DNA of 64,000 bases from Candidatus Enterocola sp. (GCA_045633865.1 JAZQZD010000021.1:2915-66914); one strand, 5' to 3'; shown: positions 6,485 to 37,300, numbered from the stretch's first letter. Translations and numbers: made by a program. The notes: generated by a model not told the origin, from the sequence alone.

Positions 6485-6490
6485 ATTAGT

Positions 6491-6518
6491 TAGGAGTGAG
6501 GAGTTAGGAGTGAGGAGT
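6491..6518 (+). repeat. Heptamer array (TAGGAGT/GAGGAGT)x4, starting 7 nt after the stop codon; it also forms the 5' arm of a hairpin with 6523..6534
   Basis: taggagt gaggagt taggagt gaggagt. gttaggagtgag pairs with ctcattcctaac (one G.U pair). Confidence 0.85.
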
Positions 6519-6568
6519 TATTCTCATTCCTAACCACAAAACCTAATAAATATAGAATAATTCAGAAT

Positions 6569-7012
6569 ATGAAAAATAGATATTTTATTTTAAGTGTATT
6601 GTTTTGGGCAATAGCCTCAGTTTTATTTGCAGTAAAACTACCTAGTTCTGCATATATGGGTGGAACTACTTGGGGAGGTGATAGTTATGAAGCTCAAATA
6701 TTTTCTGGTACATCTTTTAAAGGAAGTACATTGCTAACCACATCTAATGTAGATGTAGATACTGAAGTTTGTGAAAAAGCTGCTAATGATAACGGTGATC
6801 CAACTAAGTGCGGTATATGTTGTTATAATGACGTTTATTTAGTTTGTAAAGACAAAGGTGGCACAGACGAAGAATGTGGTGCTTTAAATGTGCAGTGCAA
6901 TCAATATTGTACAGAAGGTAGTTCCCTTCCTCTAGGCACTCCACTACTTCTTCTGCCTTTTGCACTAGTTTATGCTTTTGTAAGAAGAAAACGCAAAGAA
7001 GAAACTCTTTAA
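6569..7012 (+). CDS. Small (147 aa) Cys-rich protein with an N-terminal signal/anchor and a C-terminal LPLGT + hydrophobic helix + RRKRK tail
   Basis: ATG start. The N-terminal 27 aa are near-identical to the paralog at 25846. Eight Cys in the ectodomain (CGICC, CNQYC). It ends SSLPLGTPLLLLPFALVYAFVRRKRKEETL. The same position in both module copies supports a real gene. Confidence 0.6.
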   Translation: MKNRYFILSVLFWAIASVLFAVKLPSSAYMGGTTWGGDSYEAQIFSGTSFKGSTLLTTSNVDVDTEVCEKAANDNGDPTKCGICCYNDVYLVCKDKGGTDEECGALNVQCNQYCTEGSSLPLGTPLLLLPFALVYAFVRRKRKEETL

Positions 7013-14512: not shown

Positions 14513-14524
14513 TGTAGAACTTTT

Positions 14525-14685: not shown

Positions 14686-15327
14686 ATGAAAGAATTACCT
14701 TCTTTTATGATAGACTCAACCTTAACAGACGGTAGGGCAGAAACTATAATTGATTTTATGTTGTCGTGGTGCATAAGGTGTGCATCCATAGAGTACAAGG
14801 TGGAAGAGTACAAGATATTTCACAATTATTGCCGAAATATCCTAGCGAAATTGTTGGGAATTGAAAAGATAAACGATGATATACAATTTCAAAATATCCA
14901 AGTATGGAAAGGATGCCAATACATAGACTTGTGGGTAGAGTTGGAAGTAAAAGAAAATGAGCAAATAAACAAACATGCCATACTAATTGAGGATAAATAT
15001 TACGGACCATTAAGACAATGTAAAGATGACGACGGGGAGTATAGAAATCAATTGTTTGTATATAAAAAGAGGTTTGATGCGCATTACGAATCGGTTCGCA
15101 AAGAACAAGAAAAAAAAGGTCTAAAGCCAGAAGTTTGGCTTCCGCATTATGCACTAGTAACCTGTATTAAAAAGGAACCCCAAAAATTTGCGATATACGA
15201 CGCAGCAGGCGATTTAGGTTTTAATAAGTTCTACATAAAAGAACTTTTAGGTGAAATAAATAACAATCCAGCAGAAACCGAGAGTGACATATTCAATGAA
15301 TTCTGGTTCAGGTGGTTAAGCGACTAA
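14686..15327 (+). CDS. Hypothetical protein with a PD-(D/E)XK nuclease-like motif
   Basis: ATG start. YIDLWVELEV ... HAILIEDKYY gives a D ... E-x-K arrangement on predicted adjacent strands, as in PD-(D/E)XK nucleases. I recognise no other family. Confidence 0.45.
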   Translation: MKELPSFMIDSTLTDGRAETIIDFMLSWCIRCASIEYKVEEYKIFHNYCRNILAKLLGIEKINDDIQFQNIQVWKGCQYIDLWVELEVKENEQINKHAILIEDKYYGPLRQCKDDDGEYRNQLFVYKKRFDAHYESVRKEQEKKGLKPEVWLPHYALVTCIKKEPQKFAIYDAAGDLGFNKFYIKELLGEINNNPAETESDIFNEFWFRWLSD

Positions 15328-15370: not shown

Positions 15371-18300
15371 ATGAAAAATTTTACAAACAATTTTAAACAA
15401 TTTACCTCGCGCCTAAGCGCAAGGTGGCTTATTTTGGCCCTAATGATGCTTGTTGGAACAAGTAGTGCGTGGGCTAAAATATTTTATTCAGGAGACATTA
15501 TTTATGTAGATGCAACTGATTGCTCATGGTATGAGGGCGATGGATGTAATGCTTCAATATATTTTTGGGGAACAAATACCACTGGGCCTACTCACATGAC
15601 TAGAATTGCTGAAAGAATATACTCTTACACATTCACTAGTCAAATGAATGTAAGTAATTTTAAAGTATTTAGACAACCTACATCAAGTTCTGGTTGGGAT
15701 AATCAATATAATGGATTTGAAGGAAACTTTGATTCAATGGGTTCACATAATACTATCAAGGTAAACTCAAGCAGTAATGGTTTCTCTTGGTCTACCTACA
15801 CCCCTCCTTGCACTCCTCCAACATTAACATTAACAACAACATCTGCTACTGTTAACAAAGGAGAAACTGTTAACCTAACTACGTTGTCGGTAGCAACAGC
15901 AAGTAATGGTGGTACGATAGAATGGTCTACTAGTACAACTGGAAGCCCTGTAATTGATGCGAATGTCACTATATCTGCAACTAAAACATATTATGCAAAG
16001 GCAGTAAAAGACGGTTGTAAATCTGCTTCAAAATCTATTACAATTACAGCTGCTTGTTCAAAAGACTTCTATTTAGTAGGTTCTGATGCCACACTTTTTG
16101 GTACCGCATGGGAACCAAAAATTGAAGCAAATAAAATGGTTTGTGATCTAAATACATTAACAAAAACATATACAAATATAACTGTTGCTGCAAATACAAC
16201 AATAGAATATAAATATACAGGTTCAAGTGGTTGGGGAGATGCAGAATACCCTTCAAGTGGTAATGCATCATTTACAATTCCAACTGCAGGAACTTACAAT
16301 ATTACATTTACAGCTACCACTGATGGCAGTAAAATTACTGGTACTCCAGCTGTCACTTGGGAACAATCTTGCACCTCTGCTAAAGTAACTATATCAGATT
16401 GGAATATTTCAACTTTGTGCCCTGGTTCTTCTGGAACATTTAAATACACAGCTGCTCAAGGAGTTACTGTAACATGGGAAATGAATGAAAACAATAGTGA
16501 CTACGCAATAGTTTCGGACAATGGAACAGTAACTATTACATATAAAGGAACTTCTACTACAAATTCAAATAAACTGTTATATACTGTTTCAGGTGATGGC
16601 ATTTGTCCAGAAGAAGATGTAGATTCTAAAAAAACAATTTCTACAGCGGCTAAACCATCAATTTCTGCGTTGTCAGACCCAACTCAGACTATTTGCGATG
16701 GCACTAATGCTACTTTAACTGTAACTTCAGGCAAAGGAACCTACAATTGGGTAAGTTCTAATGGAGGAGAAGAAATAACATTAACTTCTAACTCTGTGCC
16801 AGTTAGTATAGCAGGAACATATACTGTTACTGCGACACAAAATGGTTGCGAAAGCGAACCTATTGAATTTACAGTTTCAGTAACTCCTGTTCCTGCCATT
16901 AACGATTTTGATATTACTCTTCCAAATAATCCAACATACAATGGTAGGCCACAAAATGCAATTGTAACTCCTAAGAATGGAATTACAGGTATGGGAGATG
17001 TAAATATTAGTTATTATAAAGGAGGTCAAAAAACAGACCCAATTAATGCAGGCGAATACACAGTAAAAATCTCTGTTGCAGCAGGTGACTCTTATTGTGC
17101 AATGGACGAGACAGAAATCGGCACATTCACTATCAACAAAGCAGATCAAACAACCGCATTAACTATTACTGCTTCTACAAATATCTGTGGCAAAGAAGCT
17201 ACATTCTCTGTAACTGGTGGCGATGGTACAGGAGATTACTCATATTCATTAGATAAAAATGATGCGGGAGTTTCATTAAATGGCACTACATTAACTGCTA
17301 CACAAAATGGCTCTGTTACTTTAAAAGTAAAAAAACTAGGTGACACAAACTATAATGATTCACAAGAAACAACAAAAGAGTTCAACTTCACAATGCCAAT
17401 TGAGAATGTAGAATTGGCCATTATAGAAGGTGAAAGTGCAACTGGTAAGTATTGTGTTGGACACCAAATCAAGTTCCAATTAACATACACTGGTTCTACT
17501 CCTACTTTTGATACAGAAAACTTCAGTTGGATTTTAGATAATTTTGAGTCTGAAATAAGCAATAATGTTGGAGGTATTGCATCTGGTGCAACATGGACAA
17601 CTACATTAGGTGCAAATGACACATCTTTAAAATTAAAATTAAAAGATTGCAACGGAAGTTGGAAAGAATCTACACCTATTACATTTGAGGTATATGAACG
17701 TCCAAGTGCTCCTGTATTTAATCCAAACTCTATTACAGTTTGCCAAGGTCAACCATTTACACTTCCTGGATCAGAAGCAGAAGGTTATATCTGGAGCGAT
17801 GCAACAGGCAAACCAACCACACCAAATAAGCCAAATGGTATAGATGCTACTGCAGAGTACTACGCTGTAATTAGCTTTGGTTGCCCTTCTGATGCAACTT
17901 TGTATACTGTCAATGTAAATAAGATTCCTACAATAACAGGTGCTTCTGTAACACAAACAAATAAAGAGATTACTTTGGAATCAGCTGCAGGTGCAGACAC
18001 AGAGTGGTCTGTAAGTCCTACAGAAAACGTAACATTAACAGATAATCGTGATGGCACTGCCACATTTGTTGCTACAGCAAATGGCGACTACACCATCACT
18101 GCTTCAAATGGTGTTTGTGCTCCTGTTTCTCACACAATCAAAGTTAGTGACGCCTTCTACATTTGGGTGCGTAATGCGAAAGAAAGTGATACTGCATATG
18201 GTCAGTTTTACTATCCTAACGAGAACTCAGAAGCAGTTCGTGGTGGTGCTATGTTCTATGCAGAATGCGATGCTCTTCCAACTAAAGACAATTATACCAC

Positions 18301-20677
18301 TTATAACAGAGGTGGACGCAAAGCTGATATTGTAAATGATGACTGCGACGGATACACATGGTATGGTTTTAAAGCTAGTGCAGACGTAATAGCAGGAACT
18401 AAATATTTCTATGTTCATGCTACAAATGACCTAAGTGATGGTGGCTACTATACCCACTCAAAACCACTAAAGAGCGCCTTATCTGGTGATGTATATTATA
18501 CACTAGGAACTACTGGAGATAGTTATAAAGGTTGGAATCTATCAACTGCTTCGGCTCCTTACGCAGGTCCTAAAGTTTATGCCCTAGGTTCAACCGTACT
18601 TGGCACTAACAAATTTGCAGCGCTTTATGTGACAGATTGTTCTGGTAAAGAAATTACAGGTTATCAATGGTATAAAGATGGACAACCTTATTCTTCTGTA
18701 TGCTCTTACGTAGGCAAAAAAGGTGCAGAAGATAGCAATGCAGGTTTAAGCAACAACATTCGTCCTGCAGAAGCAGGTAACTATAGCTGTACTGTAACTT
18801 ACGAAGATGGTACTACAGCTACTTCTGCAGCAGTTGAGATAAGTGGTTCTTATAATCGTTCATTTACCTCTAACATACCTGTTTTAGTAGTAAATACAGG
18901 TAGTAAAGGTTTCCCAGATTGTACTGGTTTGAGCGGTCAAACTGCATCAAAAAATGCTTCTACATTTAAAGAGAAACGTTCTGTTGATGTTAAGATATAT
19001 GAAGGTGAAACACTAGTTTACGACCGTAAGGCTCGCATGAACTACCGTGGTTCTTCATCGCTAAACTTTGTAAAGAAATCATACGCATTCTGTCCAGGCG
19101 ATGCTAATTGCGAAGAAAAAGATGGTCAAGCAGATTACGTAAAAACAGCCAAACTAAATATGCTTGGCGTTGGTACTGCATGCGACAAAGATTGGGTTCT
19201 TTATGCTGCCGCAGCAGACCCTTCACTTATGCGTAACCGCCTAGTTTTTGACTCTTATAAAGCAATGACAGGTAAATGGGGCGTAAATAGTCGATATGTA
19301 GAACTTATTGTTGATGGCGTATACAAAGGTGTTTATGTATTCATGGATAAAATTACTATGAACAATGACCGTGTAAAAATAAATGAAGATAAAGGTTTTA
19401 TAGTAAAATTTGATAAAACCGACAGAGAAGACCGCGTAGGTGGTCTCAATGGTGTATTTGGAGACGAAAAAACCTTTAAAACATCACATACTGGTAAGGA
19501 TGATATCGGCACCTACGATACTAGCATCGACCAACGCTTTGAAATAGAATACCCTGAAAAAGATGATTATAAAACAGGTTGGAAAGCAAGAGTGGATGGA
19601 ATTCAAGGTATGTTCCAAGCCTTTGAGGACGCTCTAAAACAAGGCGATTATGCTACCGTACAAAAATACATCGACTATACATCTTGGGCAGATTGGTTCA
19701 TCATTAATGAATTTACCAAAAACGTAGACGCCTATCGTGCAAGCTGTATCTTCGTTTATACAGGCGAAGCAGGTGCTAAAATTGAGGCTCGTCCACTTTG
19801 GGACCAAGAGTTGAGTTTCAATAACCAAGCTTCAAATGGTACTAGCGATAAAGGTAGCAATTCTACTACAGGTTTATTAATACAACACTCTAATGTATAC
19901 TCTGATGCATTTGGAGCACCATTCTGGTTTACTGGTGGTGGTTCAGATATAACAGGAGGTTTATTAAGCGACCCATGTTTTGTGCAAGTAGTAAAAGAAC
20001 GTTGGAATATGCATCAATCTGGTGCTTTGAGTAAGAAGTCATTAGAAGATTTAGTTGATGAATATGAAGACGACCTAGCTCCAGAAGGAACTACTGAAAA
20101 TGCACTAAAACGTGAAACCACATTCTGGATAGGAAAAAGCCGTGGCACATGTGATTGTAGTTACGATACAGACAATGCTACTGCAACTGGTTATCAAAAC
20201 AAAACTTTCGAAGAATCTAAAGGTACTATTACCAATTGGATAAGCGATGCTGCTGCAAGCGAAGCCAAAGGTCGTCGTGCTGGTCTTACTACAGCAATTA
20301 ACGGTTTAACCGGTGCAAGCTTTAGCATTCAAATTATTCCATCTGAAGCTAAAACAACCCCATGGGAACCTGTAGAAATAGCAGTTAGCGTAACACCAGC
20401 TGGTTATGATTATAAGTTGGAATATACCGACAATGACTTGGGTAGTGTGGCAAACACAATTATAAAAGAAGAAGGTGACAAAATCACTTATCGCATTCCT
20501 CGTCCTAGTGCATGGGGAACAGGTGATGCAGAAGAAGGCGCACGTGCTGATATTGAATATGGCATTAAAGCTACGTTGAGCGTTCAAGAAGGTACTACCG
20601 TTTGCGGTAGCCAAGCTGCCCCATCTTCAACTGGCAAAATTATCTTGCAAGACGAAGATAATGACAACTGTAAATAA
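15371..20677 (+). CDS. Giant (1768 aa) secreted protein: extended signal peptide, CBM-like and Ig-like/MBG-like repeats, C-terminal CotH (atypical kinase) domain; no recognisable T9SS CTD
   Basis: Signal peptide ending TSSAWA. Cys-flanked Ig-like repeats (e.g. ICDGTNATLTVTSGKGTYNWVSS...GTYTVTATQNGCES). MBG-like unit (YNGRPQ...NAGEYTVKISV...FTINKA). CotH blocks from ~residue 1190 (NYRGSSSLNFVKKSYAFCPG ... RYVELIVDGVYKGVYVFMDKIT ... IDQRFEIEYPEKD ... YRASCIFVY ... RPLWDQELSFNN). It ends ...VCGSQAAPSSTGKIILQDEDNDNCK. Confidence 0.85.
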   Translation: MKNFTNNFKQFTSRLSARWLILALMMLVGTSSAWAKIFYSGDIIYVDATDCSWYEGDGCNASIYFWGTNTTGPTHMTRIAERIYSYTFTSQMNVSNFKVFRQPTSSSGWDNQYNGFEGNFDSMGSHNTIKVNSSSNGFSWSTYTPPCTPPTLTLTTTSATVNKGETVNLTTLSVATASNGGTIEWSTSTTGSPVIDANVTISATKTYYAKAVKDGCKSASKSITITAACSKDFYLVGSDATLFGTAWEPKIEANKMVCDLNTLTKTYTNITVAANTTIEYKYTGSSGWGDAEYPSSGNASFTIPTAGTYNITFTATTDGSKITGTPAVTWEQSCTSAKVTISDWNISTLCPGSSGTFKYTAAQGVTVTWEMNENNSDYAIVSDNGTVTITYKGTSTTNSNKLLYTVSGDGICPEEDVDSKKTISTAAKPSISALSDPTQTICDGTNATLTVTSGKGTYNWVSSNGGEEITLTSNSVPVSIAGTYTVTATQNGCESEPIEFTVSVTPVPAINDFDITLPNNPTYNGRPQNAIVTPKNGITGMGDVNISYYKGGQKTDPINAGEYTVKISVAAGDSYCAMDETEIGTFTINKADQTTALTITASTNICGKEATFSVTGGDGTGDYSYSLDKNDAGVSLNGTTLTATQNGSVTLKVKKLGDTNYNDSQETTKEFNFTMPIENVELAIIEGESATGKYCVGHQIKFQLTYTGSTPTFDTENFSWILDNFESEISNNVGGIASGATWTTTLGANDTSLKLKLKDCNGSWKESTPITFEVYERPSAPVFNPNSITVCQGQPFTLPGSEAEGYIWSDATGKPTTPNKPNGIDATAEYYAVISFGCPSDATLYTVNVNKIPTITGASVTQTNKEITLESAAGADTEWSVSPTENVTLTDNRDGTATFVATANGDYTITASNGVCAPVSHTIKVSDAFYIWVRNAKESDTAYGQFYYPNENSEAVRGGAMFYAECDALPTKDNYTTYNRGGRKADIVNDDCDGYTWYGFKASADVIAGTKYFYVHATNDLSDGGYYTHSKPLKSALSGDVYYTLGTTGDSYKGWNLSTASAPYAGPKVYALGSTVLGTNKFAALYVTDCSGKEITGYQWYKDGQPYSSVCSYVGKKGAEDSNAGLSNNIRPAEAGNYSCTVTYEDGTTATSAAVEISGSYNRSFTSNIPVLVVNTGSKGFPDCTGLSGQTASKNASTFKEKRSVDVKIYEGETLVYDRKARMNYRGSSSLNFVKKSYAFCPGDANCEEKDGQADYVKTAKLNMLGVGTACDKDWVLYAAAADPSLMRNRLVFDSYKAMTGKWGVNSRYVELIVDGVYKGVYVFMDKITMNNDRVKINEDKGFIVKFDKTDREDRVGGLNGVFGDEKTFKTSHTGKDDIGTYDTSIDQRFEIEYPEKDDYKTGWKARVDGIQGMFQAFEDALKQGDYATVQKYIDYTSWADWFIINEFTKNVDAYRASCIFVYTGEAGAKIEARPLWDQELSFNNQASNGTSDKGSNSTTGLLIQHSNVYSDAFGAPFWFTGGGSDITGGLLSDPCFVQVVKERWNMHQSGALSKKSLEDLVDEYEDDLAPEGTTENALKRETTFWIGKSRGTCDCSYDTDNATATGYQNKTFEESKGTITNWISDAAASEAKGRRAGLTTAINGLTGASFSIQIIPSEAKTTPWEPVEIAVSVTPAGYDYKLEYTDNDLGSVANTIIKEEGDKITYRIPRPSAWGTGDAEEGARADIEYGIKATLSVQEGTTVCGSQAAPSSTGKIILQDEDNDNCK

Positions 20678-20713
20678 TTAGAACCTTAGTAAGAAAAATA
20701 AAAAATACACAAT

Positions 20714-23700
20714 ATGAAAAGATTTTATAACAATACATTAATCGGTGGGGCTTTCAGTAAAGCCCTACGAGTTGTAGCCTTACTTTGCGTTCTATTAGGC
20801 ATAAGTGGCAATGCATGGGGAGCATACTACCTACATTATAACAATACTGGTTCCCACACCAAAGATGTTGGTGCTTCTGATTTAAAATGGACAGATGGAG
20901 TAGAGCCAGTAGATAATGTATGTACTTGGACAATCTCAACTTCAGCATGGGATAACTATGTTTACATTATGTCTAGTAAAACTAATAAAACAATTTTAGA
21001 TATTACTGGAGCTACGATTTCAAATAAATCATCAAATATAGATTTTGGTAATATTTCTGACCATAATAGTAAAAAACTATTCTATTTTAAGCAAAAAAGT
21101 GCTAAACAAATAACAATAACAATTACCTATAATCTATCTACAAAGGTTATTACACTTGCAGACGGTAGTGCTGGTACTTGTACCCCTTCTGCTACCATTA
21201 CAGGTGCATCTTATGATGGAACAAAAATTACGTTAAGCGGGACTGTAACTGAAGTATGTACAAGTAGTATTGTAACATGGTACGGTTGGCAATATAAAAC
21301 TGATGTTAATGCAGATTGGTCTACTAGTACGTATATAGAAGGAAAGGGAAAGGCTGGTTCTAACCAACATCAAACAACAACATCTCCTCTTAATTATACT
21401 AATACTTGGACAGGATTTGAAGAAGGTAAAACCTATTATTTTAGAGCTTATGCCCTTCAGGGTTCAACATGGTACTCAGACAATAAAATCTTATCTGTAA
21501 CCATCCCCAAAGGTGGTGGTAGCACAGGAGAAGCCGATTGTAGTGGTGTGGTTTATTTGGATCCAAATATATACGTTGGAGATGATGCTTGGTTTGCTGC
21601 TTATTTCTTTGGTAATGAAGATATATGGGTTGAAATGACACCTGCGTGTGATGGTTTATATAAAGCAATGATTCCAGATGGAGCCACAGGAGTAACTTTT
21701 GTTAGAAAAAATCCAGCTGATAAAACACTTGAGAGCTGGAATAATAAATGGAATCAAACTGTTGATTTACAAATACAGACTAATAAATATTTTAAGGTAG
21801 AAAATTGGAATGCTTCAGATGGTAAGGAAACAGGTACTTGGTATGATACCGATTGCACCGATGGTTGTATACCTGCTGAGCAACCTTCTACCAACGTGCT
21901 ACTTTCTCGCGAGGCGATTGTAAACAAATCTGCTAAAACAGCACAACTTTTTGGTTACCTAAAATCAATTAAGGCACCAGATTGTCCAACGTCTGAAATT
22001 GCTGATTATGGTTTCTTCTATTGCATGGTAAACGATGGTGATACACCTTGTACTCCTACTCCAACTTCAAGCAGTACAAAAATAGCTGCAGATCCAAGTC
22101 CGGCCTTGTCACGTGGCATGGAATTTACTGCAACAGTTGGTCTTATTAAAGAACCATCTGATGCTCTTCAAGATGGTAAAACATATTACTATCGTGCGTA
22201 TGCAAAAATTGATGATAAATATATTTTATCTGGTGAGATTCGCTCATTTAGCACCGACCCTTGTATTCCTCAATACGGTGGTTTGTCTGATAAATACAAT
22301 GGTAAACCTATTGTATATACCATCAATGCAGATCCTTCGTTTGCAGCCAACGACTGTAAATTGCACTTTAACTCATTGCAAGCTGCTATCGACCACCTAA
22401 AAGCAACCAATACAAAAGATGATGACTTTAAGTATGTAACTTTGAATAATGGTTCATATAACTTGAATCAACCAGTAGAAATGCGAGTAGTTTACTACGA
22501 CGATACCCCAGATGATAATACTAAAACTTATATCTATAGAGGTAAAGAGATTGGTGAAAACGAATCTTTTGTCTATGCTGGTGACGACAAACCTGCAAAT
22601 GCCAATCTGATCCAGGATTTTAATAAATCAGGAGCAGATGCCAAAAATACACTATCTATTAAAGCTGGTAGCGATAAAGCAAAACCTTGGATTCACCACA
22701 TTGTAATACGTAATAGTAAGAACATACTATTAGACTCTCTATGTATTTATTCTGATCCAAAAGATTATGATGCAACAAAAGCTGGTAATCAACTAAAAAG
22801 TGATAACGCTTTAGAAATAGACATCAATACAACCAAATGGAATATGATTGAAGTGCAAAGCGATTGCAACTCGTATACAAGATCAGATAATGATGGTAGC
22901 TTAACATTTACCAATATGTGCGATGCTAATATTGTGGTACAAAACTGTATGATTGGTTCTGCTGGTTTTACAGGATTGCACCTATCTGCATACGATGGTA
23001 TTACCTTTAAAAACAATGAATTTGAAGCAATATTTAGTGCTCAAGCAGATAATAATGTGAAGCATAGAAATATGATTAATTATGGTGCTTCAGCTAAATT
23101 TGTTGCATGTAAAAACATCAAGTTTATTCAAAATAACTTCCGTGGCTCGCACCCTACACTAATGTGGTTGCAAGAGTGTCAGAATGTACTTATTATGAAT
23201 AATGTATTCTGGTACACCAATGAATTAGACAAGAAAAATGCTTCTGATGCCAATGCGGATACACCTGACAATGCTGCATTGCGACTTGTACACCAATTTG
23301 GTGCAAAAGATAGTGTAGAAAACGTTGCTGCTTATTATAATACATTCTATGTAGCAGAAACCGATGTAAAAGATAAGTACAACTTCTTGTATTTTTCTAA
23401 TACAGTTAATAATAATAGTTCATCGAATGCAAAATTTAAAATTAATACTATTTATTTCAAATATAACAATTGTTATAGCTACGATTCTGGAGTTCCAGGA
23501 AGATCAAATAGTAGTAAGACGATTACGGATAATAATAGACAAAACGCTGCCTATATTCCCGAACCTTTCTTAGGTAAGGACGTAGCGACAAACAATTTCT
23601 GTCCTAACAACTTCTGGAGTGAATATGACCAAATAGAATACAACAAACTTGCAGAAGATAAAAAAGCAAGTTATGTTTCTGCTTTTGCATTTGGCTGTAC

Positions 23701-25702
23701 AGATAATGAATTTATAAACGTTAAAAGCCAAGTATGTTCTACTACAGCATCTGGTCCAGCTTCATTAATAGTAAAAGGTAAAGGTATGGATTATGGTGTT
23801 AAACCTGATATTAGCACAACAGGTATTACACTAGAACCTAATGAACAATATGCAGACCGCTATATCATAGGTGCACGTCCTGCAAATGGAGAGAAATGGA
23901 CTTATGGTGCATACCAAAGTAAAGATGAAATAACTACTCAAACTATCTATTGGGTTGGTGTTTCTAGTGATTGGGATGACCGCAACAACTGGGAATACGA
24001 AACAGAGGTTGATGGTAAAATGGTTCGTCAACGTGTATCTTGTATCAATACACTTTCTGAAGATTTAAAAGTAGTAATTGAAGAAATTGGTACTGTAGAA
24101 ATTGCTGGTGGTAGAAAATGGCCTCAAGTACCTGCAAGCTTTACAGAGAATAGAACCAATAGCGAATACGATGAACACGTATCTGCTGGTTTAGGTACCG
24201 GTAAAACTCCTACCAAGTTCGCTAGTACTATCGAACTAGAATATGGTGCTGGTCTAAGAGGTGTGGAAAACTTAAATGATGGAACTATGCGTTACGACCA
24301 AGCAATTGTTCATTTCGATGCAGAACGCAACAAATGGTTGCTAGTTGGTCCTATCATTAGACCATTTGACACAGAGAAAAATGATGGAACAACACGTAAT
24401 GTAAATTCTGGTGACTATTTCAGAAACTTTGAACCTCAAATTTATATGCACGGAACTGTAGTGGATGGTAACACTATTTCTTGGGGCAAAACATTTGGAG
24501 ATTTGAATGTAAATGTAACACCAGATACTGTATTTGCAATTAATGCATCAGTTCTATATGGTAAATATTACGACACAGCAGAGGATTACCTAAAATATGA
24601 AGGTATTAAAGTGGATGATAAAGCTCCAATACCTTACAGATTTACTGGTCGTTTTGCTGTAGAGGAGTATGAAACAGAAGGTGCATACCAATATACACTA
24701 AAGAAAACCAACGATAAGAACCTTATAAACAACGTTTATCCATGTAACCTTGATGCTAAATATATAGAAGAACAAGGATTTGGTACCATTAACGTATATG
24801 ACTATAACATAGCTTCGTTTGTAAGTACTAGCGAAGCAAGTCCAACGGGCAACGTTTATATCAAAGCTCAAAATGGTTTCGTGTTTACACCAAATGAAGG
24901 TAAACAATTAAAATTGACCAATGATATTCTTGCAGAAGGTTCTACACGTACTCGTGCAGGAGAAATTCCTTTACCAACATTCTCACTAAATGTGGATAAT
25001 GCGAATACAACAAAACCTGGTGCAAGTAACATTGTAGTACGCTACGACGAGTTCTTAGGTACATCTGAAGAATCTCTTCTTAACACACCAAAAGTATTTA
25101 CCAGAAATTCTGACACACCAGAAGCATACATCATTCACAATGATGGTAAATATACTCGTTTAGATGCTGGTAAAGAAAAAGTAACTATCCCATTGGGTGT
25201 ACGTTTAATGAAACCAATGAACTTAACATTTGAAAAAGTTTATAACGAAGGTTACGACGAAGTAGTATTAGTAGATACAAAAACTCAAAAATTCTATAAC
25301 CTACTAAAACGTACATACACTACAGATGTGTTAAGCGAAGGTGATACAGAAGGTCGTTTCTATCTAAACTTAACTGTTTCTGGCGATGATGACCTTGACG
25401 ATGAAGGTGATAACCCAGGAGGAGACGATATTGTAGATGATGATGATGTTTCTACTGAAGTGGAAGAAACTATTGAAGAACCTCAAATCAACATCTATAC
25501 TGTAGACAACAGTATTGTTAGAGTTTCTTCTGTCGGCACAGTTCTAAAAACTATTTACGTAAGTGATATGACTGGTCGTACAGATGAATACAGCGTAGAT
25601 GGTAATTATGTAGAACTTCAATTGCCAGTTTCTAGCGGTGTTTATACTGTAACAGTAGTAGGTGAAACAGCAAGTAAAATAGGAAAAGTGATACTTAAAT
25701 AG
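20714..25702 (+). CDS. Giant (1662 aa) secreted right-handed beta-helix protein with a T9SS C-terminal sorting domain (paralog of 1745..6484)
   Basis: The signal peptide is near-identical to the paralog. Beta-helix repeats (IVVQNCMIGSAGFTGLHLSAYDGITFKNNEFEA, IKFIQNNFRG, LIMNNVFW). Shared blocks WDDRNNW, LVGPIIRPFD and EGRFYLNL. Acidic linker, then CTD ...IYVSDMTGRTDEYSVDGNYVELQLPVSSGVYTVTVVGETASKIGKVILK. Confidence 0.8.
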   Translation: MKRFYNNTLIGGAFSKALRVVALLCVLLGISGNAWGAYYLHYNNTGSHTKDVGASDLKWTDGVEPVDNVCTWTISTSAWDNYVYIMSSKTNKTILDITGATISNKSSNIDFGNISDHNSKKLFYFKQKSAKQITITITYNLSTKVITLADGSAGTCTPSATITGASYDGTKITLSGTVTEVCTSSIVTWYGWQYKTDVNADWSTSTYIEGKGKAGSNQHQTTTSPLNYTNTWTGFEEGKTYYFRAYALQGSTWYSDNKILSVTIPKGGGSTGEADCSGVVYLDPNIYVGDDAWFAAYFFGNEDIWVEMTPACDGLYKAMIPDGATGVTFVRKNPADKTLESWNNKWNQTVDLQIQTNKYFKVENWNASDGKETGTWYDTDCTDGCIPAEQPSTNVLLSREAIVNKSAKTAQLFGYLKSIKAPDCPTSEIADYGFFYCMVNDGDTPCTPTPTSSSTKIAADPSPALSRGMEFTATVGLIKEPSDALQDGKTYYYRAYAKIDDKYILSGEIRSFSTDPCIPQYGGLSDKYNGKPIVYTINADPSFAANDCKLHFNSLQAAIDHLKATNTKDDDFKYVTLNNGSYNLNQPVEMRVVYYDDTPDDNTKTYIYRGKEIGENESFVYAGDDKPANANLIQDFNKSGADAKNTLSIKAGSDKAKPWIHHIVIRNSKNILLDSLCIYSDPKDYDATKAGNQLKSDNALEIDINTTKWNMIEVQSDCNSYTRSDNDGSLTFTNMCDANIVVQNCMIGSAGFTGLHLSAYDGITFKNNEFEAIFSAQADNNVKHRNMINYGASAKFVACKNIKFIQNNFRGSHPTLMWLQECQNVLIMNNVFWYTNELDKKNASDANADTPDNAALRLVHQFGAKDSVENVAAYYNTFYVAETDVKDKYNFLYFSNTVNNNSSSNAKFKINTIYFKYNNCYSYDSGVPGRSNSSKTITDNNRQNAAYIPEPFLGKDVATNNFCPNNFWSEYDQIEYNKLAEDKKASYVSAFAFGCTDNEFINVKSQVCSTTASGPASLIVKGKGMDYGVKPDISTTGITLEPNEQYADRYIIGARPANGEKWTYGAYQSKDEITTQTIYWVGVSSDWDDRNNWEYETEVDGKMVRQRVSCINTLSEDLKVVIEEIGTVEIAGGRKWPQVPASFTENRTNSEYDEHVSAGLGTGKTPTKFASTIELEYGAGLRGVENLNDGTMRYDQAIVHFDAERNKWLLVGPIIRPFDTEKNDGTTRNVNSGDYFRNFEPQIYMHGTVVDGNTISWGKTFGDLNVNVTPDTVFAINASVLYGKYYDTAEDYLKYEGIKVDDKAPIPYRFTGRFAVEEYETEGAYQYTLKKTNDKNLINNVYPCNLDAKYIEEQGFGTINVYDYNIASFVSTSEASPTGNVYIKAQNGFVFTPNEGKQLKLTNDILAEGSTRTRAGEIPLPTFSLNVDNANTTKPGASNIVVRYDEFLGTSEESLLNTPKVFTRNSDTPEAYIIHNDGKYTRLDAGKEKVTIPLGVRLMKPMNLTFEKVYNEGYDEVVLVDTKTQKFYNLLKRTYTTDVLSEGDTEGRFYLNLTVSGDDDLDDEGDNPGGDDIVDDDDVSTEVEETIEEPQINIYTVDNSIVRVSSVGTVLKTIYVSDMTGRTDEYSVDGNYVELQLPVSSGVYTVTVVGETASKIGKVILK

Positions 25703-25707
25703 GTAGT

Positions 25708-25735
25708 TAGGAGTGTGGAGTTAGGAGTGAGGAAT
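25708..25735 (+). repeat. Heptamer array (KAGGAGT-like x4) starting 6 nt after the stop codon
   Basis: taggagt gtggagt taggagt gaggaat. The homologous array is at 6491..6518. Confidence 0.8.
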
Positions 25736-25736
25736 T

Positions 25737-25813
25737 TTGCGAGTAAGCGAGGGCAGTGATAAGCTTGCTTAAGCACTGCCGAGCGAAAGCAAAATCACGA
25801 GCGCAGCTCGTAA
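25737..25813 (-). repeat. MITE/REP-like two-hairpin element, copy 1 (reverse orientation), inserted in the spacer between the beta-helix gene and the small gene
   Basis: The core taagcttgcttaag is flanked by ggcagtg/cactgcc arms, with a second hairpin acgagc-gca-gctcgt. The segment is absent from the otherwise homologous spacer at 6519..6568. Confidence 0.75.
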
Positions 25814-25845
25814 CTTCTATCCTAAGAAATAAAAAATTATAGATT

Positions 25846-26268
25846 ATGAAAAATAGATATTTTATTTTAAGTATATTGTTTTGGGCTATCGCCTCAGTTT
25901 GTTTAGCGATTAAATTGCCTGCTTCTCCATTTATTTCAGAATATGCATACGCAGACTCTGATAATGAATCTTATGTATCTAGTATTGGCACCCAAATTAT
26001 GAATCATGCTATGCTAAGTGCGTATAATGGTGAGTGTGATGAATATAGAGAAGGTGGTCAATTATGGCAAGGTGATGCCAATGGTTGTACTGAATGTTGT
26101 GATCGCAACTTCCCTTCTGGTGTTGACCGTGAAGGACGTGCAAAATGCTATGATATGTGTGATACTCCACTTGGTATGCCTCTAGGTACTACACTTTGTT
26201 TAGCACCTTTCGCACTTGCCTATGCTGGTTTTATGTTCTACCGTCGTAGAAAAGAAAATGCAGAATAA
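25846..26268 (+). CDS. Small (140 aa) Cys-rich protein with an N-terminal signal/anchor and a C-terminal MPLGT + hydrophobic helix + RRRK tail (paralog of 6569..7012)
   Basis: N-terminus MKNRYFILSILFWAIASVCLAIKLP. CTECC and CYDMC motifs. It ends TPLGMPLGTTLCLAPFALAYAGFMFYRRRKENAE. Confidence 0.6.
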   Translation: MKNRYFILSILFWAIASVCLAIKLPASPFISEYAYADSDNESYVSSIGTQIMNHAMLSAYNGECDEYREGGQLWQGDANGCTECCDRNFPSGVDREGRAKCYDMCDTPLGMPLGTTLCLAPFALAYAGFMFYRRRKENAE

Positions 26269-26290
26269 GCCTAAACTTCTTATGTTTCCA

Positions 26291-26388
26291 TAATAAAGAT
26301 TTAACATAAGTACAATTAATTTTTCTAAACCTCACACTGCCCTGCCGGACATGAGATTTTGTTCTCACCGGTAGGGCAGTGGTGTGTT
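26291..26388 (+). repeat. ~100-bp long-hairpin intergenic element, copy 3 of 3
   Basis: 13-bp stem actgccctgccgg / ccggtagggcagt (one G.U pair) with a ~19-nt loop. The left flank is identical in pattern to 13604..13647. Confidence 0.7.
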
Positions 26389-26400
26389 GAATAAAAACAC

Positions 26401-26434
26401 AAAAGACTGATAACCTTGCGATTATCAGTCTTTT
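26401..26434. terminator. Bidirectional rho-independent terminator (10-bp perfect stem, A-run on the left, T-run on the right)
   Basis: aaaagactgataa ccttgcga ttatcagtcttttt. It lies between the small Cys-rich gene (+) and the tRNA-Leu 3' end (-). Confidence 0.75.
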
Positions 26435-26521
26435 TGGTACCCAGACCCGGGATCGAACCGGGATGGAAGTGAATCCACTGGTGTTTGAGACCAGCGCGTC
26501 TACCGATTCCGCCATCTGGGC
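26435..26521 (-). tRNA. tRNA-Leu (anticodon CAA), type II with a long variable arm, CCA encoded
   Basis: The reverse complement reads GCCCAGATGGCGGAATCGGTAGACGCGCTGGTCTCAAACACCAGTGGATTCACTTCCATCCCGGTTCGATCCCGGGTCTGGGTACCA. Acceptor GCCCAGA/TCTGGGT. Anticodon stem CTGGT/ACCAG with loop CTCAAAC. T arm CCCGG-TTCGATC-CCGGG. 87 nt. Confidence 0.93.
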
Positions 26522-31340: not shown

Positions 31341-34300
31341 TTGAAGAAGTTTTTCTACATATTAGCATTACTTTCTGTTTCGCTTGCGGTTTTCGCTCAG
31401 GCGACAGGGGATAGTATTGCCAATAAAGAAGAGTCTCAGCTTCGTTTTCCTATTCCTAAAAACTACGTTGAAAATTACAACGACCTTGGTCAATCTACAC
31501 CTGCGTCACTTCCTATTCCAGACAATGTGGTTACAGAGGTGGTTTACGACCCAGATACAGACAGATATTATTTTCAATCAAAAGTTGGTGACGAAGACCT
31601 AGGAACTCCTTTTTATCTTACAAGTGAAGAGTTTGCAGAATACCAAGCTTTAAGGTCTCAACAAGAATATTATAAAGCAAAAGTGAGCGAAGAAAAGGGT
31701 AAAAAACATGAAATTTCGTTCACAGATATGAAGTTTGATATTGGCCCTGCCGACAAGGTGTTTGGACCTGGTGGTGTGCAACTTAAGCTTCAAGGTTCTG
31801 TAGAACTTATCTTTGCTCTTCAATTTAAAAAGCTTAAAGACCCAGCGCTTAGCGAGCGTTCTCAAAATCCTGCTCCAACATTCGATTTTGATGAGAAAAT
31901 TCAGCTGAATGTGAGTGGTTCTGTGGGTGATAAACTGAATTTTGGACTTAATTACAACACAGAGGCTACTTTCGACTTCGACCAATCTATGCTTAAACTG
32001 CAATATGAAGGCAAGGAAGATGATATTATCAAAAAATTGGAAGCAGGTAATGTGAGTATGCCTCTTACTGGTTCTCTTATTACTGGTAATACTTCACTTT
32101 TTGGTTTTAAAACAGACCTTCAGTTTGGTAAACTTAATGTGAGTGCAGTGGTGTCTCAACAAGAGTCTGAGTCTCAAACTATTAATACTACAGGTGCTCA
32201 AACTACCGATTTTCATATTTCTATTGACCAATACGACGAAAATCGCCACTATTTCCTTTCTCATTTCTTCCGCGAACACTATGATGAGTGGATGAAGGAT
32301 GTGCCAAATATTTCATCTGGTGTGTCTGTCACAAATATTGAGGTGTGGGTAACTAATAAAAACTCAATTAACTATCAAAATACTACAAATGTGGTGGCTT
32401 TCGCCGATCTTGGTGAACCAGAACGCATTTATAATTCATCTTTTGCTTCTTCTGGAAGTATTCCTTCAAATGGTGCGAATACATTGTTCTCACAAGTGGT
32501 GCAAGCCAATAACGGTTTGCCAGATATTTATGAGGTGGATTCGTATCTGAAAGCTTGGAATATGGAGGCAGGTACAGACTTTGCAAAACTTGAAGGTGCT
32601 AGAAAACTAGAATCTTCAGATTATGTGCTAAACAAGGAATTGGGTTATATCTCATTGAAGTCTGCACTTAATAATGATGAAATTTTGGCTGTGGCCTATC
32701 AATATACCTACAAAGGTAAGGTTTATACTGTGGGTGAACTTAGTACTGCTACCACAGAAACTACGAAGCCACTTGCCCTTAAATTGCTGAAATCTACCGA
32801 CAAGTCGCCACTTCTTCCTACGTGGGATTTGATGATGAAGAATATCTATTCTCTTGGTGCATATCAAGTTCAGAGCAATAAGTTTACTCTGAATATTATG
32901 TATAAAAATGACTCTACAGGTATAGATTTACGTTATATCACAGAAGGTCCTATTGCCAAGAAACCTCTTTTATGGGTAATGAACCTAGACCATTTAGACT
33001 CTCAACAAAATGAAAAACCAAATGGTGATGGTATGTTTGACTTTGTAGAGGGTTATACTATTATTTCACAAAATGGTAAAATTATCTTCCCAGTGGTGGA
33101 GCCTTTTGGTTCGCATTTGGCTAAAAAGCTAAACAACGACCCTTATTTAGTGAAGAAATATGTTTACCAAGAGCTTTATGATTCTACATTAACCACAGCT
33201 CAAGAGTTTGCTGAAAAGAATAAGTTCTATCTTGAGGGTGAATATCGTGCTTCTTCTGGTAGCGAGATTAGGCTAAATGCTATGAATGTGCCTAAGGGTT
33301 CTGTGAAGGTTACTGCTGGTGGTGTGCAACTTACTGAAAATGTGGACTATACCGTCGATTATATGATGGGTGTGGTAACCATTATGAATCAAGATCTTAT
33401 AGATTTAGGTACTCCTATTAGTGTTACTATGGAGAGCCAATCTATGTTTAATATGAAGCGTAAGTCTCTTATAGGCACACACTTAGACTACGCATTCACC
33501 GACAACTTCAATGTTGGGGGTACTGTGATGTACCTTTCAGAAAAACCTCTTACAGAAAAAGTTGGCTATGGCGACGACCCTGTAGCAAATACTGTATGGG
33601 GCTTGAATATGTCGTATAGAGACCAATTTCAATCTGTTACCGATTGGTTAAATAAACTGCCTATACTCAACCTTAAGCAAGCTTCTACTGTGGCATTTGA
33701 TGCCGAGTTTGCTCACATGATTCCTGGCACGGCCAAGGGCGCGCAAGGTAAAGTTTATGTAGATGACTTCGAGTCTACTACAGTTGGTTATGATGTTAGA
33801 TATGCAAGCAATTGGCGTCTTGCAAGTACTCCTTCTAGATTTGCGGAGTCTGGTTTGTCAAACAATATTGAGTATGGCAAAAACCGTGCTTTGCTTTCTT
33901 GGTACTACATAGACAATATGTTTAACCAATCTACATCTAGCACTCCTAGCCATATCAGAAAGGATAAACAACAACTTTCAAATCATTTCGTTCGTCAGGT
34001 TTCTGAAAATGAAATTTTCCCAAATAGAGAGTTGGTTTATGGTCAGTCTAGTTATATTCAAACTTTAGACTTGGCTTATCATCCAACAGAACGTGGTCCT
34101 TACAATATTTATGCAGAAAACTTCGATTCTGAGGGTAAACTTATCAATCCAGCTACTAAGTGGGGTGGTGTGATGCGTAAGTTGGAAACTACAGACTTTG
34201 AGACCAACAATATTGAGTACTTAGAGTTTTGGGTAATGGACCCATTTGTGTACAACGATGGTACAATGACTGGTGGTGACCTTTATTTCAACTTCGGTGA

Positions 34301-37300
34301 TATTTCTGAGGATATTCTAAAAGATGGTCGTAAGTTCTATGAAAATGGACTTCCTGTGGAATTGGACGAAAGTGCAATAGTTTCTACCGTTTGGGGTAAG
34401 GTGCCTACAAAACAATCTGTTGTTTATGCATTTGATGCCACAGAGGCTGCTAGAAAAGCTCAAGATACTGGTCTAAATGGTCTTTCTACAGAGCAAGAGT
34501 TCAATCATGAATCTTATAAGACATTCGTAGAAAAACTATCTGCCAAACTTTCTCCAGATGCTCGTCAGAGAATGATGGAAGATAAATTCTCTCCACTCAA
34601 CGACCCTGCTGGTGACAATTTCCACCACTATCGTGGCACAGACTACGACAATGCCGAAGTAGGAGTGTTGGAACGTTATCGTTATTATAATGGTACGGAG
34701 GGCAACTCTCAAACCACATCTGAAAACGAGTCTTATACCACAGCTTCTTCAAACAAACCAGATTATGAAGATATCAATGTGGATAATACTTTGAGCGATA
34801 GTGAAAAATATTTTGAATATAGGGTTTCACTTCGTCCAGAGGATATGAATGTGGGTCAAAACTATATCACAGATATGGTTACCTCTTCTGTTACTCTTAA
34901 AAATGGAGAAACAGGTACAGTGCGTTGGTATCAGTTCAAAATTCCACTACGCGATGCAGACAATTATACTTCTTATGGTAGCATTCGTAGCTTTAAGTCT
35001 ATACGTTTTATGCGTATGTACTTAACTGGTTTCACTCACGATGTAAACTTAAGGTTTGCTAGAATGGAACTAGTAAAAGGTGAATGGAGAACATATCAAA
35101 AAGAACTTGACAAGGCAAATCATAATGATGCCACAATACTAGAGGTGTCTTCTGTAAACATTGAAGAAAATGCTGACAAACAACCAGTAAACTATGTGTT
35201 GCCTCCAGGTGTTTCTCGTGAGATAGACCCTTCTCAACAACAAGTTCGCCAAGAAAACGAACAGTCTATGGTGCTTAGAATACACAATTTGTATCCAAAA
35301 GATGCTCGTGCTGTGTATAAGAAATTTGGTGGTTATGATATGCGTCAGTATGGAAAACTTGAAATGTTTGTCCATGCAGAGGCTCTACCAGAAGATGATA
35401 CCAATCTAACTGATAGAGATATGAAGTTGTTTATCAGATTGGGTTCAGATTATCAAAACAACTATTATGAATATGAGGTGCCTCTTACCCTTACACCAGC
35501 TGGTATTTATTCTAACAATACCACATCGGATCGCAAGGTTGTATGGCCAAGCGAAAATAAAATAGAATTACCATTGGAGCTTCTTACCAACCTTAAAAAG
35601 GCACGTAATGAAGAGAAGAATCGTAACCACTCTTCTGTAACCAACCTAACAGAATATTCTACACTAGACCCTGCAAATCCTAACAATAGAATTACTATTA
35701 TGGGTAACCCAAGTTTGGGCGAGGTGGAAGTGTTTATGATTGGTATTCGAAATGCTTCAAAGGCAGTGAAGAGTGCAGAGGTGTGGGTAAATGAACTTCT
35801 GCTTACAGACTTCGATGAGCAAGGCGGTGTGGCTGCTCGTGCTAGTTTGGATATTGCTCTTTCAGACTTCATTACACTTAATGCTGCTGGCCGTATAGAA
35901 ACAATTGGTTATGGTGGTATAGAACAAAAAGTACAAGAGCGTCGTCAAGACGATTATTATCAATACAATGTGAATGCTGGTATCGACCTAGGTAAACTAT
36001 TGCCAGAAAAGGCTAATACTGTCATTCCTATTCGTTATTCTCTTTCTCATGAGATTGTAAATCCAAAATACAATCCGCTAGATAAGGATATTTTATTGAA
36101 GGATGCTCTAGAAGCTACAGCAAATAAAGAACAACGCGATTCTATTTTAAATGTGGCTCAAGATATGACCATGACTCAGAGTCTTTCTGTGCCTGGTATT
36201 CGTGTGGGTATTACAAGCAAAGATGGTCCACGTCCTTGGGACCCTGCAAACTTCACAGTAGGTGGCTCTTACTCTCAAACAGAGTCTCGCGATCCAAATA
36301 CTACTCGTGAGGTAGAGCAATATAGCAATGCTTATGGTCAATATGAATTCTCTTGGAGTCCAAAACCTGTAGAACCATTTGCCAAGATTAAGTCTATTCA
36401 AAACAATAAGCACATGAAGTGGCTTACTGATTTTGGTTTCTACTATGCTCCTAAATTGTTCTCTTTCAAAACAAACTTTGTGAGAAACTACTATGAGCAA
36501 GTGACAAGGGATTTTGAAAATCCAGACCAAAAAATGGACCCAACATTTGCCAAAGATTTCATGTGGAGCAATGAGTTCGACCTTGCTTGGGATATTACAA
36601 AAAATATCAAATTCACATTTACATCTAGCAACAATTCTCTTATCACCGAAAATGATGGAGGTGTAAATAGCGAGTTGTATCCAGATGAATATGAAATGTG
36701 GAAGGATTCTGTTTGGAATAGCCTTTCTCACTTAGGTTCTCCTCAAGACTACAACCAACGTGTTACATTGTCTTGGAATGTTCCATTCAATAAAATGCCT
36801 GCTCTAAACTGGATTCAAGGTAATATTAAGTATGATGGTACTTACCAATGGTTAAGTGGCACAGATATTATTGCCAATACTGCTATGAGTAAAGGTACTA
36901 TTCAAGCAGATGGTAAATTCAATTTTGAATCTCTTTACAACAAGTCTGAATATTTAAAAGAGATAAATAGAAAGTATGGTTCTACCAATGCTCCAAAACC
37001 TAAGAAACAAAAAGAGTATAACCAGAAACTTAAACTTCAAGCTGGTGATACTGTTGTGGTTCGCCACCGTTTGAACGATAAGAAGGTGAGAATTAAAGCT
37101 ACAGCAGATGGTAAAGCTGTGCAATTAAAACATAAAGTGCTTGATGCAAACAGTATTAAAGTGTTTGCAACAAAAGGTGCTGAGGTGGAACTTACAGTAA
37201 TTTCTGGTGGTCCTCAACCTGCCAATATGGTATTTACCGATGTGTTGGCTCGTGTAGCTATGCTTATCAGAAATGTATCGTTCAATTACTCTCAAACAGA

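Follow-up and report, generated by a model that had tools for sequence, protein, structure and literature searches.

Is a CotH kinase-like protein that recurs beside a beta-helix protein and a small Cys-rich protein the centre of a kinase–substrate unit, or is it one exchangeable part of an apparatus built at the cell surface? The question is raised by a stretch of 64,000 nucleotides (nt) from Candidatus Enterocola sp. (GCA_045633865.1 JAZQZD010000021.1:2915-66914), hereafter called the window, in which a first-pass annotation had noticed one three-gene order twice on the same strand. Gene 1 was described there as a giant protein with a signal peptide and a CotH domain, gene 2 as a beta-helix protein with a C-terminal domain (CTD) for export by the type IX secretion system (T9SS), and gene 3 as a small Cys-rich protein with N- and C-terminal hydrophobic segments. 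Either a dedicated kinase-plus-substrate module or an adhesin-assembly module was proposed, and the second option turned out to lie nearer the evidence. We suggest, with moderate confidence, that the unit is a lineage-specific, multi-copy operon of the Paludibacteraceae and Candidatus Enterocola, a Bacteroidales genus, which builds a T9SS-dependent protein complex at the cell surface.

All six open reading frames (ORFs) of the repeated order were recovered, each on the plus strand. Copy 2 consists of gene 1 (15371..20677, 1768 amino acids (aa)) and gene 2 (20714..25702, 1662 aa), both complete ORFs, and of gene 3 (25846..26268, 140 aa). Copy 1 comprises a gene 1 that is truncated at the window edge with its CotH and C-terminal domains present (3..1706), gene 2 (1745..6484, 1579 aa) and gene 3 (6569..7012, 147 aa). 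The gaps between genes 1 and 2 measure 36 nt in copy 2 and 38 nt in copy 1, those between genes 2 and 3 measure 143 nt and 84 nt, respectively. On the protein level the two gene 1 copies are 45% identical across the CotH and C-terminal part (E 2e-114), the gene 2 copies 34% across about 1320 aligned columns (E 1e-171) and the gene 3 copies 39% (E 1e-19). We regard both copies as true, old paralogs.

The distribution of the unit was determined from its gene 2. About 112 full-length gene 2 homologues were found in 5.8 billion proteins, and the few with names belong to metagenome-assembled genomes (MAGs) of Paludibacteraceae. From one genome for each GTDB species, a pattern-based scan yielded 59 loci (numbered L001 onward), all from Paludibacteraceae, Candidatus Enterocola or other Bacteroidales gut MAGs and about 3–6 per assembly; the surveyed MAGs include cattle, sheep, yak and horse gut samples. 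Fragments of CotH that are 94% identical to that of the window are likewise labelled Paludibacteraceae, which assigns the window to this group. For the conservation counts ORFs were called in all loci and scored with hidden Markov models (HMMs) for four candidate families, giving 65 distinct gene 2 homologues from other genomes. A gene 3 homologue was located 0–242 nt downstream of gene 2 in 53 of the 55 cases with enough downstream sequence, an arrangement far beyond chance. Upstream, a large same-strand ORF corresponding to gene 1 preceded 39 of the 41 complete gene 2 homologues for which upstream sequence was available.

The unit therefore recurs outside this genome, but its kinase-like domain does not always recur with it: CotH was present in only 21 of the 39 upstream partners and absent from the other 18. 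Most CotH-less partners retain the MKNFTNNFKQFTSRLSARWLI.. extended signal peptide, carry Ig_7, PKD or CBM26 modules and keep the two-Cys C-terminal domain described below, except for one distant clade that ends in ...KYLWAIY. Furthermore, the position of CotH varies. In L005 CotH (aa ~816-1230), the beta-helix and the CTD are joined in this order in a single ORF of 2930 aa (15444-24236), 15 nt upstream of a gene 3 homologue, while in a distant clade a CotH gene of about 700 aa stands after gene 3 and outside gene 1 (L033 4207-6315, L061 17133-19286). CotH domains 40–45% identical to that of the window occur as single genes in unrelated neighbourhoods, and more distant Bacteroidota CotH proteins often carry a T9SS CTD of their own. 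Consequently, CotH is a recurrent but optional and swappable passenger of the scaffold, the invariant core of which is gene 2 together with gene 3. The co-occurrence in many genomes, the conserved intergenic elements and the natural fusion of genes 1 and 2 bear out the earlier proposal that the three genes work together as a functional unit.

The gene 2 protein of copy 2 (1662 aa) starts with an extended signal peptide and a variable head (~aa 37-390), continues with a right-handed beta-helix (~aa 530-1030) and beta-sandwich domains, and ends in a T9SS type A CTD behind an acidic linker that is disordered in the model. Between the window paralogs the first ~390 aa do not align at all. Within the signal peptide M1, K2, F4, N7, T8, R19 and A22-L27 are invariant across 12 family members. 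We also noticed that the signal peptides of gene 1 (15371-15475) and gene 2 (20714-20821) are unusually long and strongly conserved, and recall the extended ones of other very large secreted proteins.

Gene 2 of copy 2 has no Pfam or NCBIfam match, and its beta-helix and CTD escaped detection by HMMs. In a test against TIGR04183 and PF18962 it gave no match at E ≤ 0.01 and copy 1 reached 18.3 bits versus a cut-off of 23; the Pfam Beta_helix model produced a sub-threshold match in copy 1 only. At family level TIGR04183 matched 10 of 12 gene 2 members at E ≤ 0.01 (best 6.4e-07). An AlphaFold2 model of aa 500-1662 (mean predicted local distance difference test (pLDDT) score 76.7, about 70-85 in the CTD region) exhibited the regular short strands of a right-handed beta-helix, several beta-sandwiches and a terminal immunoglobulin (Ig)-like domain. 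In a Foldseek search the last ~75 residues superposed on the CTD of RemA in the T9SS complex (8gl6_D) with a template modelling score of 0.81, a root-mean-square deviation of 1.6 Å over 75 columns, 25% identity and a probability of 1.00. This domain, encoded at 25481..25699 on the plus strand (aa ~1590-1662), ends in GKVILK. For the helix the same program returned the tailspike depolymerases CBA120 TSP2 and Depo32 and the pectate lyase Pel9A with probabilities of 0.98-1.0, and further matches to GH110, GH28, GH136, PL9, fucoidan lyase and phage depolymerases. The family alignment contains many invariant polar residues in the helix, and many members carry modules resembling the carbohydrate-binding module (CBM) family CBM26. 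Thus, family matches and predicted structure confirm gene 2 as a putative T9SS type A cargo with a beta-helix fold, and the modelled fold is one used by polysaccharide lyases, glycoside hydrolases and tailspike depolymerases. The translocon that would export it is encoded in the same window: as noted in the first-pass annotation, SprA lies at 31341..38582 on the plus strand (PF14349 SprA_N, E 2e-203), 5.6 kb downstream of gene 2 of copy 2.

Gene 2 is laid out like known T9SS type A cargo such as RemA of Flavobacterium johnsoniae and other CTD-bearing adhesins and enzymes: behind a Sec signal peptide comes a large beta-rich passenger, then an acidic linker and an Ig-like CTD of ~75 residues. 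It differs from them in its genetic company. Known type A cargo needs no dedicated neighbour, whereas gene 2 is locked to the gene of a Cys-rich membrane protein and to that of a CTD-less partner. Cargo with accessory genes is known from Flavobacterium gliding, with operons of the sprCDBF type and type B CTD cargo that has a PorP/SprF-like gene beside it. There, too, a giant T9SS-exported surface protein is encoded alongside accessory genes that are required specifically for that cargo. However, the accessory gene of the present unit is the 140-aa helical, Cys-rich gene 3 and not a PorP/SprF beta-barrel, no PorP_SprF domain was detected in the unit with Pfam or NCBIfam, and the CTD is of type A, not B. 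As an analogy, T9SS cargo with cargo-specific accessory genes appears to be closest to the architecture as a whole.

The junction between genes 1 and 2 carries the best conserved non-coding element of the unit. Both spacers (20678..20713 in copy 2, 1707-1744 in copy 1; plus strand) contain a nearly invariant element of ~33 nt that reads AGAACCTTAGTAAGAA..AAAATAAAAAATACAC(A/G)AT directly 5' of the ATG, or, in another notation, AGAACCTTAGTAAGAA..AAAATAAAAAATACACRAT followed by ATG. It is near-identical in 24 of the 26 loci examined, in which the flanking proteins are only 30–45% identical, and it occurs in the window at 1713-1727 and 20681-20695 only. The spacer was also seen at the equivalent position in L001-L040, where it is far better conserved than the adjoining coding sequence. 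Its near-identity despite diverged proteins argues strongly for joint transcription of genes 1 and 2 and for a constrained start of gene 2. Co-transcription of these two genes is a well supported prediction, and the element itself may be a translation-initiation or regulatory element.

The junction between genes 2 and 3 is of another kind. In most loci the stop codon of gene 2 is followed by a very stable hairpin, which on the plus strand of the window covers 25707..25825 in copy 2 (folding free energy −44.1 kcal/mol, z −4.0) and 6489..6547 in copy 1 (−26.4 kcal/mol, z −5.4). The z-scores range from −4 to −7.4 in five of six folded spacers and reach −2.6 in the remaining one. The structure is kept while the sequence changes from locus to locus; heptamers in tandem, either TTAGGAG/TGAGGAG or GGTGATx, build up the 5' arm in the window and in L004, L007, L013 and L020. 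A palindromic insert of ~75 nt in the hairpin loop, which was found in window copy 2 and in L002, L006, L010, L019, L032 and L035, accounts for the gap of 143 nt in copy 2 versus 84 nt in copy 1. No T-run follows the hairpin on its 3' side. This strong and conserved structure may attenuate, stabilise or process the transcript, so that simple read-through to gene 3 is uncertain and co-transcription of gene 3 with genes 1 and 2 is no more than plausible.

The first-pass annotation had deduced co-transcription of all three genes from the lack of promoter boxes between them. This argument carries no weight in either direction, since promoter matches are at chance level: sigma-70-type matches occurred as often as in shuffled sequence (58 found, 50 expected), and the Bacteroidetes-type −33/−7 pattern was no commoner than chance and absent from the unit. 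What stands of the proposal is the coupling of genes 1 and 2. Terminator-like sites were modestly above shuffles (14 found, 7.6 expected), and terminator-like hairpins flank unit copy 2 on both sides (14524-14560 before, 26401-26434 after).

Gene 1 begins with an extended signal peptide (aa 1-35, MKNFTNNFKQFTSRLSARWLILALMMLVGTSSAWA), which is followed by arrays of Ig-like and CBM-like domains, CotH and a family-specific C-terminal domain. A Pfam scan detected CotH together with weak Ig and CBM_20 matches, and no dockerin. As previously annotated, the protein contains a CotH kinase-like domain (19040..20245, plus strand; aa 1224-1625), which matched PF08757 with E 1.4e-36 and 127.1 bits versus a gathering score of 23.8; the domain of the truncated copy 1 matched with E 2.5e-30 and 106.5 bits.

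It had been left open whether this domain is a decayed relic. Since a direct phmmer search of the CotH region against the PDB gave a best E of only 0.94, a profile of 17 sequences was required to align it to the Bacillus cereus CotH structure 5JD9 (E 8.5e-11). In this alignment the catalytic-loop residue D1453 (nt 19727-19729, in NVDAY) corresponds to the Asp of NFDGF, and the metal-binding residue D1478 (nt 19802-19804, in PLWD) to the Asp of PWDY; both codons lie on the plus strand and both residues are invariant in the 17 sequences. Mutation of either D228 or D251 inactivates the B. subtilis kinase (PMC7821199). D1453 and D1478 would be equivalent to these two residues, the B. cereus–B. subtilis mapping being deduced from an equal spacing of 23 residues. 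One position deviates. The Asn five residues past the catalytic Asp of B. cereus CotH (HNY) is replaced by Ser1458 in gene 1. All 17 aligned Bacteroidota CotH sequences carry Ser at this position, which therefore is a trait of the clade and not a sign of decay; the D, S, D and N positions are all invariant among them. We take the CotH of gene 1 to be a genuine domain and no relic, and predict that it is catalytically intact.

The last 110-120 aa or so of gene 1 form an Ig-like domain (20318..20674, plus strand), seen in an alignment of 29 C-termini, which is common to CotH-bearing and CotH-less gene 1 proteins. Its hallmarks are the motif TTPW, a pair of invariant Cys and an acidic tail that ends in Cys (..LQDEDNDNCK); P56, C137 and C159 of the alignment are invariant (n=29). 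A divergent T9SS CTD was considered for this domain and rejected. None of the 29 C-termini matched Por_Secre_tail or CHU_C at E ≤ 1, and hhalign against the gene 2 CTD profile returned a probability of 1.2%. A search of the PDB with the domain profile produced nothing significant. Gene 1 is best described, as far as its sequence tells, as a large Sec-exported, Ig- and CBM-rich protein with conserved ends and an interchangeable middle.

Gene 3 of copy 2 encodes 140 aa, among them 8 Cys, and has a hydrophobic helix at either end, of which the N-terminal one may be a signal peptide and the C-terminal one precedes RRRK, in keeping with the first description of a Cys-rich protein with hydrophobic ends. 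The N-terminus of the family is a conserved hydrophobic segment with an AxA-type cleavage site, and (I/V)TLPSSSY, the most conserved family motif, is found just past it. A variable, disordered linker comes next, and past it six conserved Cys are arranged as C...CxxCC...CxxxC. The tail of all members consists of PLG(T/S) or PLDA, ~17–20 hydrophobic residues and RRRK. An exhaustive profile search of 1.84 billion representatives gave 91 clusters of nearly always 105–166 aa; the protein always stands alone and was never a domain of a larger protein among these clusters. Gene 3 has no Pfam or NCBIfam match, and its profile found nothing significant in the PDB. The structure search recommended by the first-pass annotation was productive for the helix and CTD of gene 2. 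For gene 3 the AlphaFold2 model is poor (pLDDT 56) and shows a helix at each terminus together with a short pair of helices that carry Cys.

The gene 3 tail has the tripartite layout of exosortase, rhombosortase and sortase signals, namely a motif, a transmembrane helix and a basic cluster. As a general sorting signal it was rejected: in about 1 Mb of loci and the window the PLGT–helix–RRRK tail occurred outside gene 3 homologues in a single antisense ORF of 75 aa, taken as chance, and no curated model matched it. No sortase-like gene was found in the window. A plain anchor in the membrane explains the tail more simply.

How could the three proteins act together? In the reading favoured here, a single mRNA would yield the products of genes 1 and 2 in a fixed ratio. 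Using its conserved C-terminal domain, gene 1 would dock on gene 2 and get to the surface together with it, be it as a T9SS passenger or through later assembly. The C-terminal helix of gene 3 would anchor this protein in the inner membrane so that it faces the periplasm, where it would be a dedicated factor for assembling or holding gene 2. The divergent heads and the 3–6 paralogs per genome point to a repertoire of specificities in binding or catalysis, probably directed to glycans such as starch-like polymers. That glycans are bound or degraded at the cell surface is suggested by the fold of the helix, by the CBM26-like modules and by the amylase gene in synteny. CotH, where present, would add a surface-exposed phosphotransferase activity.

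Several points weigh against this proposal. The mutual contact of the three proteins is indicated indirectly, by adjacency and one fusion. An export signal of gene 1 could have escaped recognition, or the protein could be retained in the periplasm. We know of no cargo for which export of a passenger through the T9SS has been demonstrated, nor of an obvious ATP source for an extracellular kinase. The topology and compartment of gene 3 are predictions from a model of low confidence (pLDDT 56), and the strong hairpin in front of gene 3 may mean that it is expressed differently or separately. Finally, the starch-binding-like modules in the window's own proteins score under the Pfam cut-offs.

A bolder form of the proposal is two-partner export through the T9SS. 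T9SS cargo is generally thought to be recognised singly, each protein via its own CTD. Here the CTD-less giant, which often carries CotH, would dock via its two-Cys domain on the CTD-bearing beta-helix carrier and pass SprA as a passenger, and the Cys-rich protein of the inner membrane would hold or match the pair in the periplasm. We consider this mechanism unlikely. If true, it would amount to a modular display of interchangeable heads by the T9SS, and bacteria would carry an active kinase on their surface.

Another reading narrows the operon proposal without excluding it. The helix of gene 2 would actively cleave polysaccharides as a lyase or hydrolase, starch-like or host glycans would be held by the CBM26-like modules that genes 1 and 2 carry, and the unit would be a T9SS-displayed alternative to Sus-like systems for glycan harvesting. 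The Foldseek matches to GH110, GH28, GH136, PL9, fucoidan lyase and phage depolymerases and the many invariant polar residues fit such a function, as do CBM26 above the Pfam cut-off in gene 1 of L035 (50.8 bits), CBM26 in precomputed annotations of gene 1 and gene 2 relatives, and an alpha-amylase gene that is syntenic between unit copies in the window, L004 and L020. However, the helix matches no CAZy-type family, Asn ladders account for many of its invariant residues, beta-helices are also common in pure adhesins, and the unit contains neither SusC/SusD nor transporter genes. That the apparatus is specifically a glycan harvester appears doubtful to us.

In the kinase–substrate option of the first-pass annotation, CotH of gene 1 would phosphorylate gene 2, gene 3 or both and thereby pattern or build up a surface layer, in the manner of Bacillus CotH acting on CotB and CotG. 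The Bacillus gene is likewise clustered with its substrates (PMC7821199). Further resemblances are the common CotH fold family, the kept catalytic and metal-binding Asp residues and the location beside genes for surface-layer proteins. The three ways in which CotH is linked to the gene 2/gene 3 pair (upstream, fused and downstream) also favour this option. Yet Bacillus CotH is a single-domain protein of 42 kDa that acts inside the mother cell on Ser/Lys/Arg-rich repeats, whereas the window CotH is one dispensable domain of a predicted exported protein of 1768 aa with no repeat-type substrate nearby. The richest segment of gene 2 or 3 contains at most 12 such residues in 30 and is an ordinary one. 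Moreover, genes 2 and 3 are still conserved in the 18 of 39 units with a CotH-less gene 1, related CotH genes stand alone elsewhere, and no extracellular ATP supply is known. The dispensability of CotH, the lack of a repeat-type substrate and the stand-alone relatives weaken this explanation to the point where we judge it quite improbable, and the notion of a unit organised around the kinase found no support.

Other CotH proteins offer closer parallels. Those of cellulosomes (CseP/Cthe_0044 and Cthe_0239 of C. thermocellum and the dockerin–CotH proteins of anaerobic fungi) also come from gut or fibre-degrading anaerobes, in which CotH is attached to a multi-protein assembly that binds carbohydrate outside the cell. 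They are attached by dockerin–cohesin pairs, whereas gene 1 lacks a dockerin and would be attached by its C-terminal domain to a T9SS cargo. By analogy, the unexplained CotH module of cellulosomes seems to be the nearest counterpart of the CotH part. T9SS-exported CotH proteins with a CTD of their own (PF08757 + PF18962) are common in Flavobacteriia, Chitinophagia and Cytophagia at about 30% identity. Their architecture is reproduced by the L005 fusion and differs from that of the window, where the CotH protein has no CTD and the neighbouring gene 2 supplies one.

Least probable of all, and in our opinion very unlikely, is a variable coat for immune or phage evasion in which the 3–6 paralogs with divergent heads are alternately expressed shields or decoys: it would explain the site beside defence genes (AbiE, Abi_2, GmrSD, PIN/ParD and HipA-like neighbours in L002, L003 and L019, and a polyvalent-protein kinase gene in the window) and is favoured by the several divergent copies per genome and the gene 2 heads of ~390 aa that cannot be aligned between the window paralogs, but neither an invertible promoter nor a recombinase stands beside the window copies, which show weak inverted repeats only, and since the locus is syntenic near cysS in several genomes the defence genes may merely share an integration hot spot. 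In the flanks of L002, L003, L019 and L020 the unit copies are found near cysS in a variable region rich in AbiEi/AbiEii, Abi_2, GmrSD, PIN, ParD and HipA-like genes.

The proposed surface-complex operon appears to be set apart by a small Cys-rich partner that is obligatory and by a companion that lacks a CTD and has swappable heads. Full-text literature searches retrieved no paper linking CotH to the T9SS or describing such a unit in Paludibacteraceae, in agreement with the first-pass annotation, which knew of no described system of this composition. A conserved operon in which a carrier with a CTD, a partner without one and a small protein of the membrane are encoded together would point to cargo-specific assembly factors and possibly to passenger export. 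The unit also sets the extracellular CotH domains of gut anaerobes, so far unexplained, in a defined genetic context, with the scaffold that occurs with and without CotH as a natural control. As the family has expanded to 3–6 copies in abundant uncultured Paludibacteraceae of herbivore and human guts, it likely shapes their binding of particles, glycans, hosts or phages.

The surroundings of the two copies contain housekeeping genes, namely cysS, ruvA, sprA, gltX, mutL and fusA and the genes for acyl-CoA synthetase, alpha-amylase and oxaloacetate decarboxylase. The alpha-amylase gene (11057-13576, plus strand, 839 aa) is located between the two unit copies, and its synteny extends to L004 and L020. 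In many units genes 1 and 2 contain starch-binding-like modules of the CBM26 or CBM20 type.

Directly upstream of copy 2, 43 nt 5' of gene 1, a facultative gene (14686..15327, plus strand) encodes a cytoplasmic protein of 213 aa with a PD-(D/E)xK-like motif (IDLWVELE...ILIEDK). Homologues with 46–51% identity occupy the equivalent position in L001 (1228-1869) and L004 (3938-4555), and a gene for ~210 aa is present in about 7 units, which include L005 (5175-5801), L013, L032 (4052-4666) and L035 (355-1005). The 213-aa protein matched no family in Pfam or PADLOC; the motif makes it a candidate nuclease-like protein. A thioredoxin was considered on the basis of weak matches (E 0.05-1) and dismissed because the CxxC is not conserved in the homologues. 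PADLOC assigned no defence system to the genes upstream of the unit or to gene 3, its sole match being a weak one of PDC-S26 (E 2.7e-4) to the L004 homologue of the 213-aa protein. The gene may be a fourth, facultative member of the unit or a hitch-hiker.

Farther upstream of copy 2 a protein of 212 aa (13797-14435, plus strand) matches Kinase-PolyVal (PF18762, E 1.8e-26), the kinase domain of polyvalent proteins of phages and conjugative elements. It is a second kinase-like gene in the neighbourhood and is unrelated to CotH. Three tandem repeats of 21 nt (GAAAACGACCTAAGTTCGAGT) at 14451-14514, unique in the window, are located just 5' of the hairpin at 14524-14560.

A direct repeat of ~105 nt with ~88% identity and an internal hairpin (CACTGCCC...GGGCAGTG) was found at 13600-13707 and 26285-26397. 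It brackets 12.6 kb that contain the Kinase-PolyVal gene, the PD-(D/E)xK-like gene and unit copy 2, and the same element also occurs 3' of gene 3 in L017, L019, L022, L024 and L035. It could be an element of the repetitive extragenic palindromic type, a terminator or an insertion boundary. Beside it, directly downstream of the unit, a tRNA-Leu(CAA) gene (26435-26521, minus strand) was identified; no integrase was seen, and such adjacency is typical of island integration sites.

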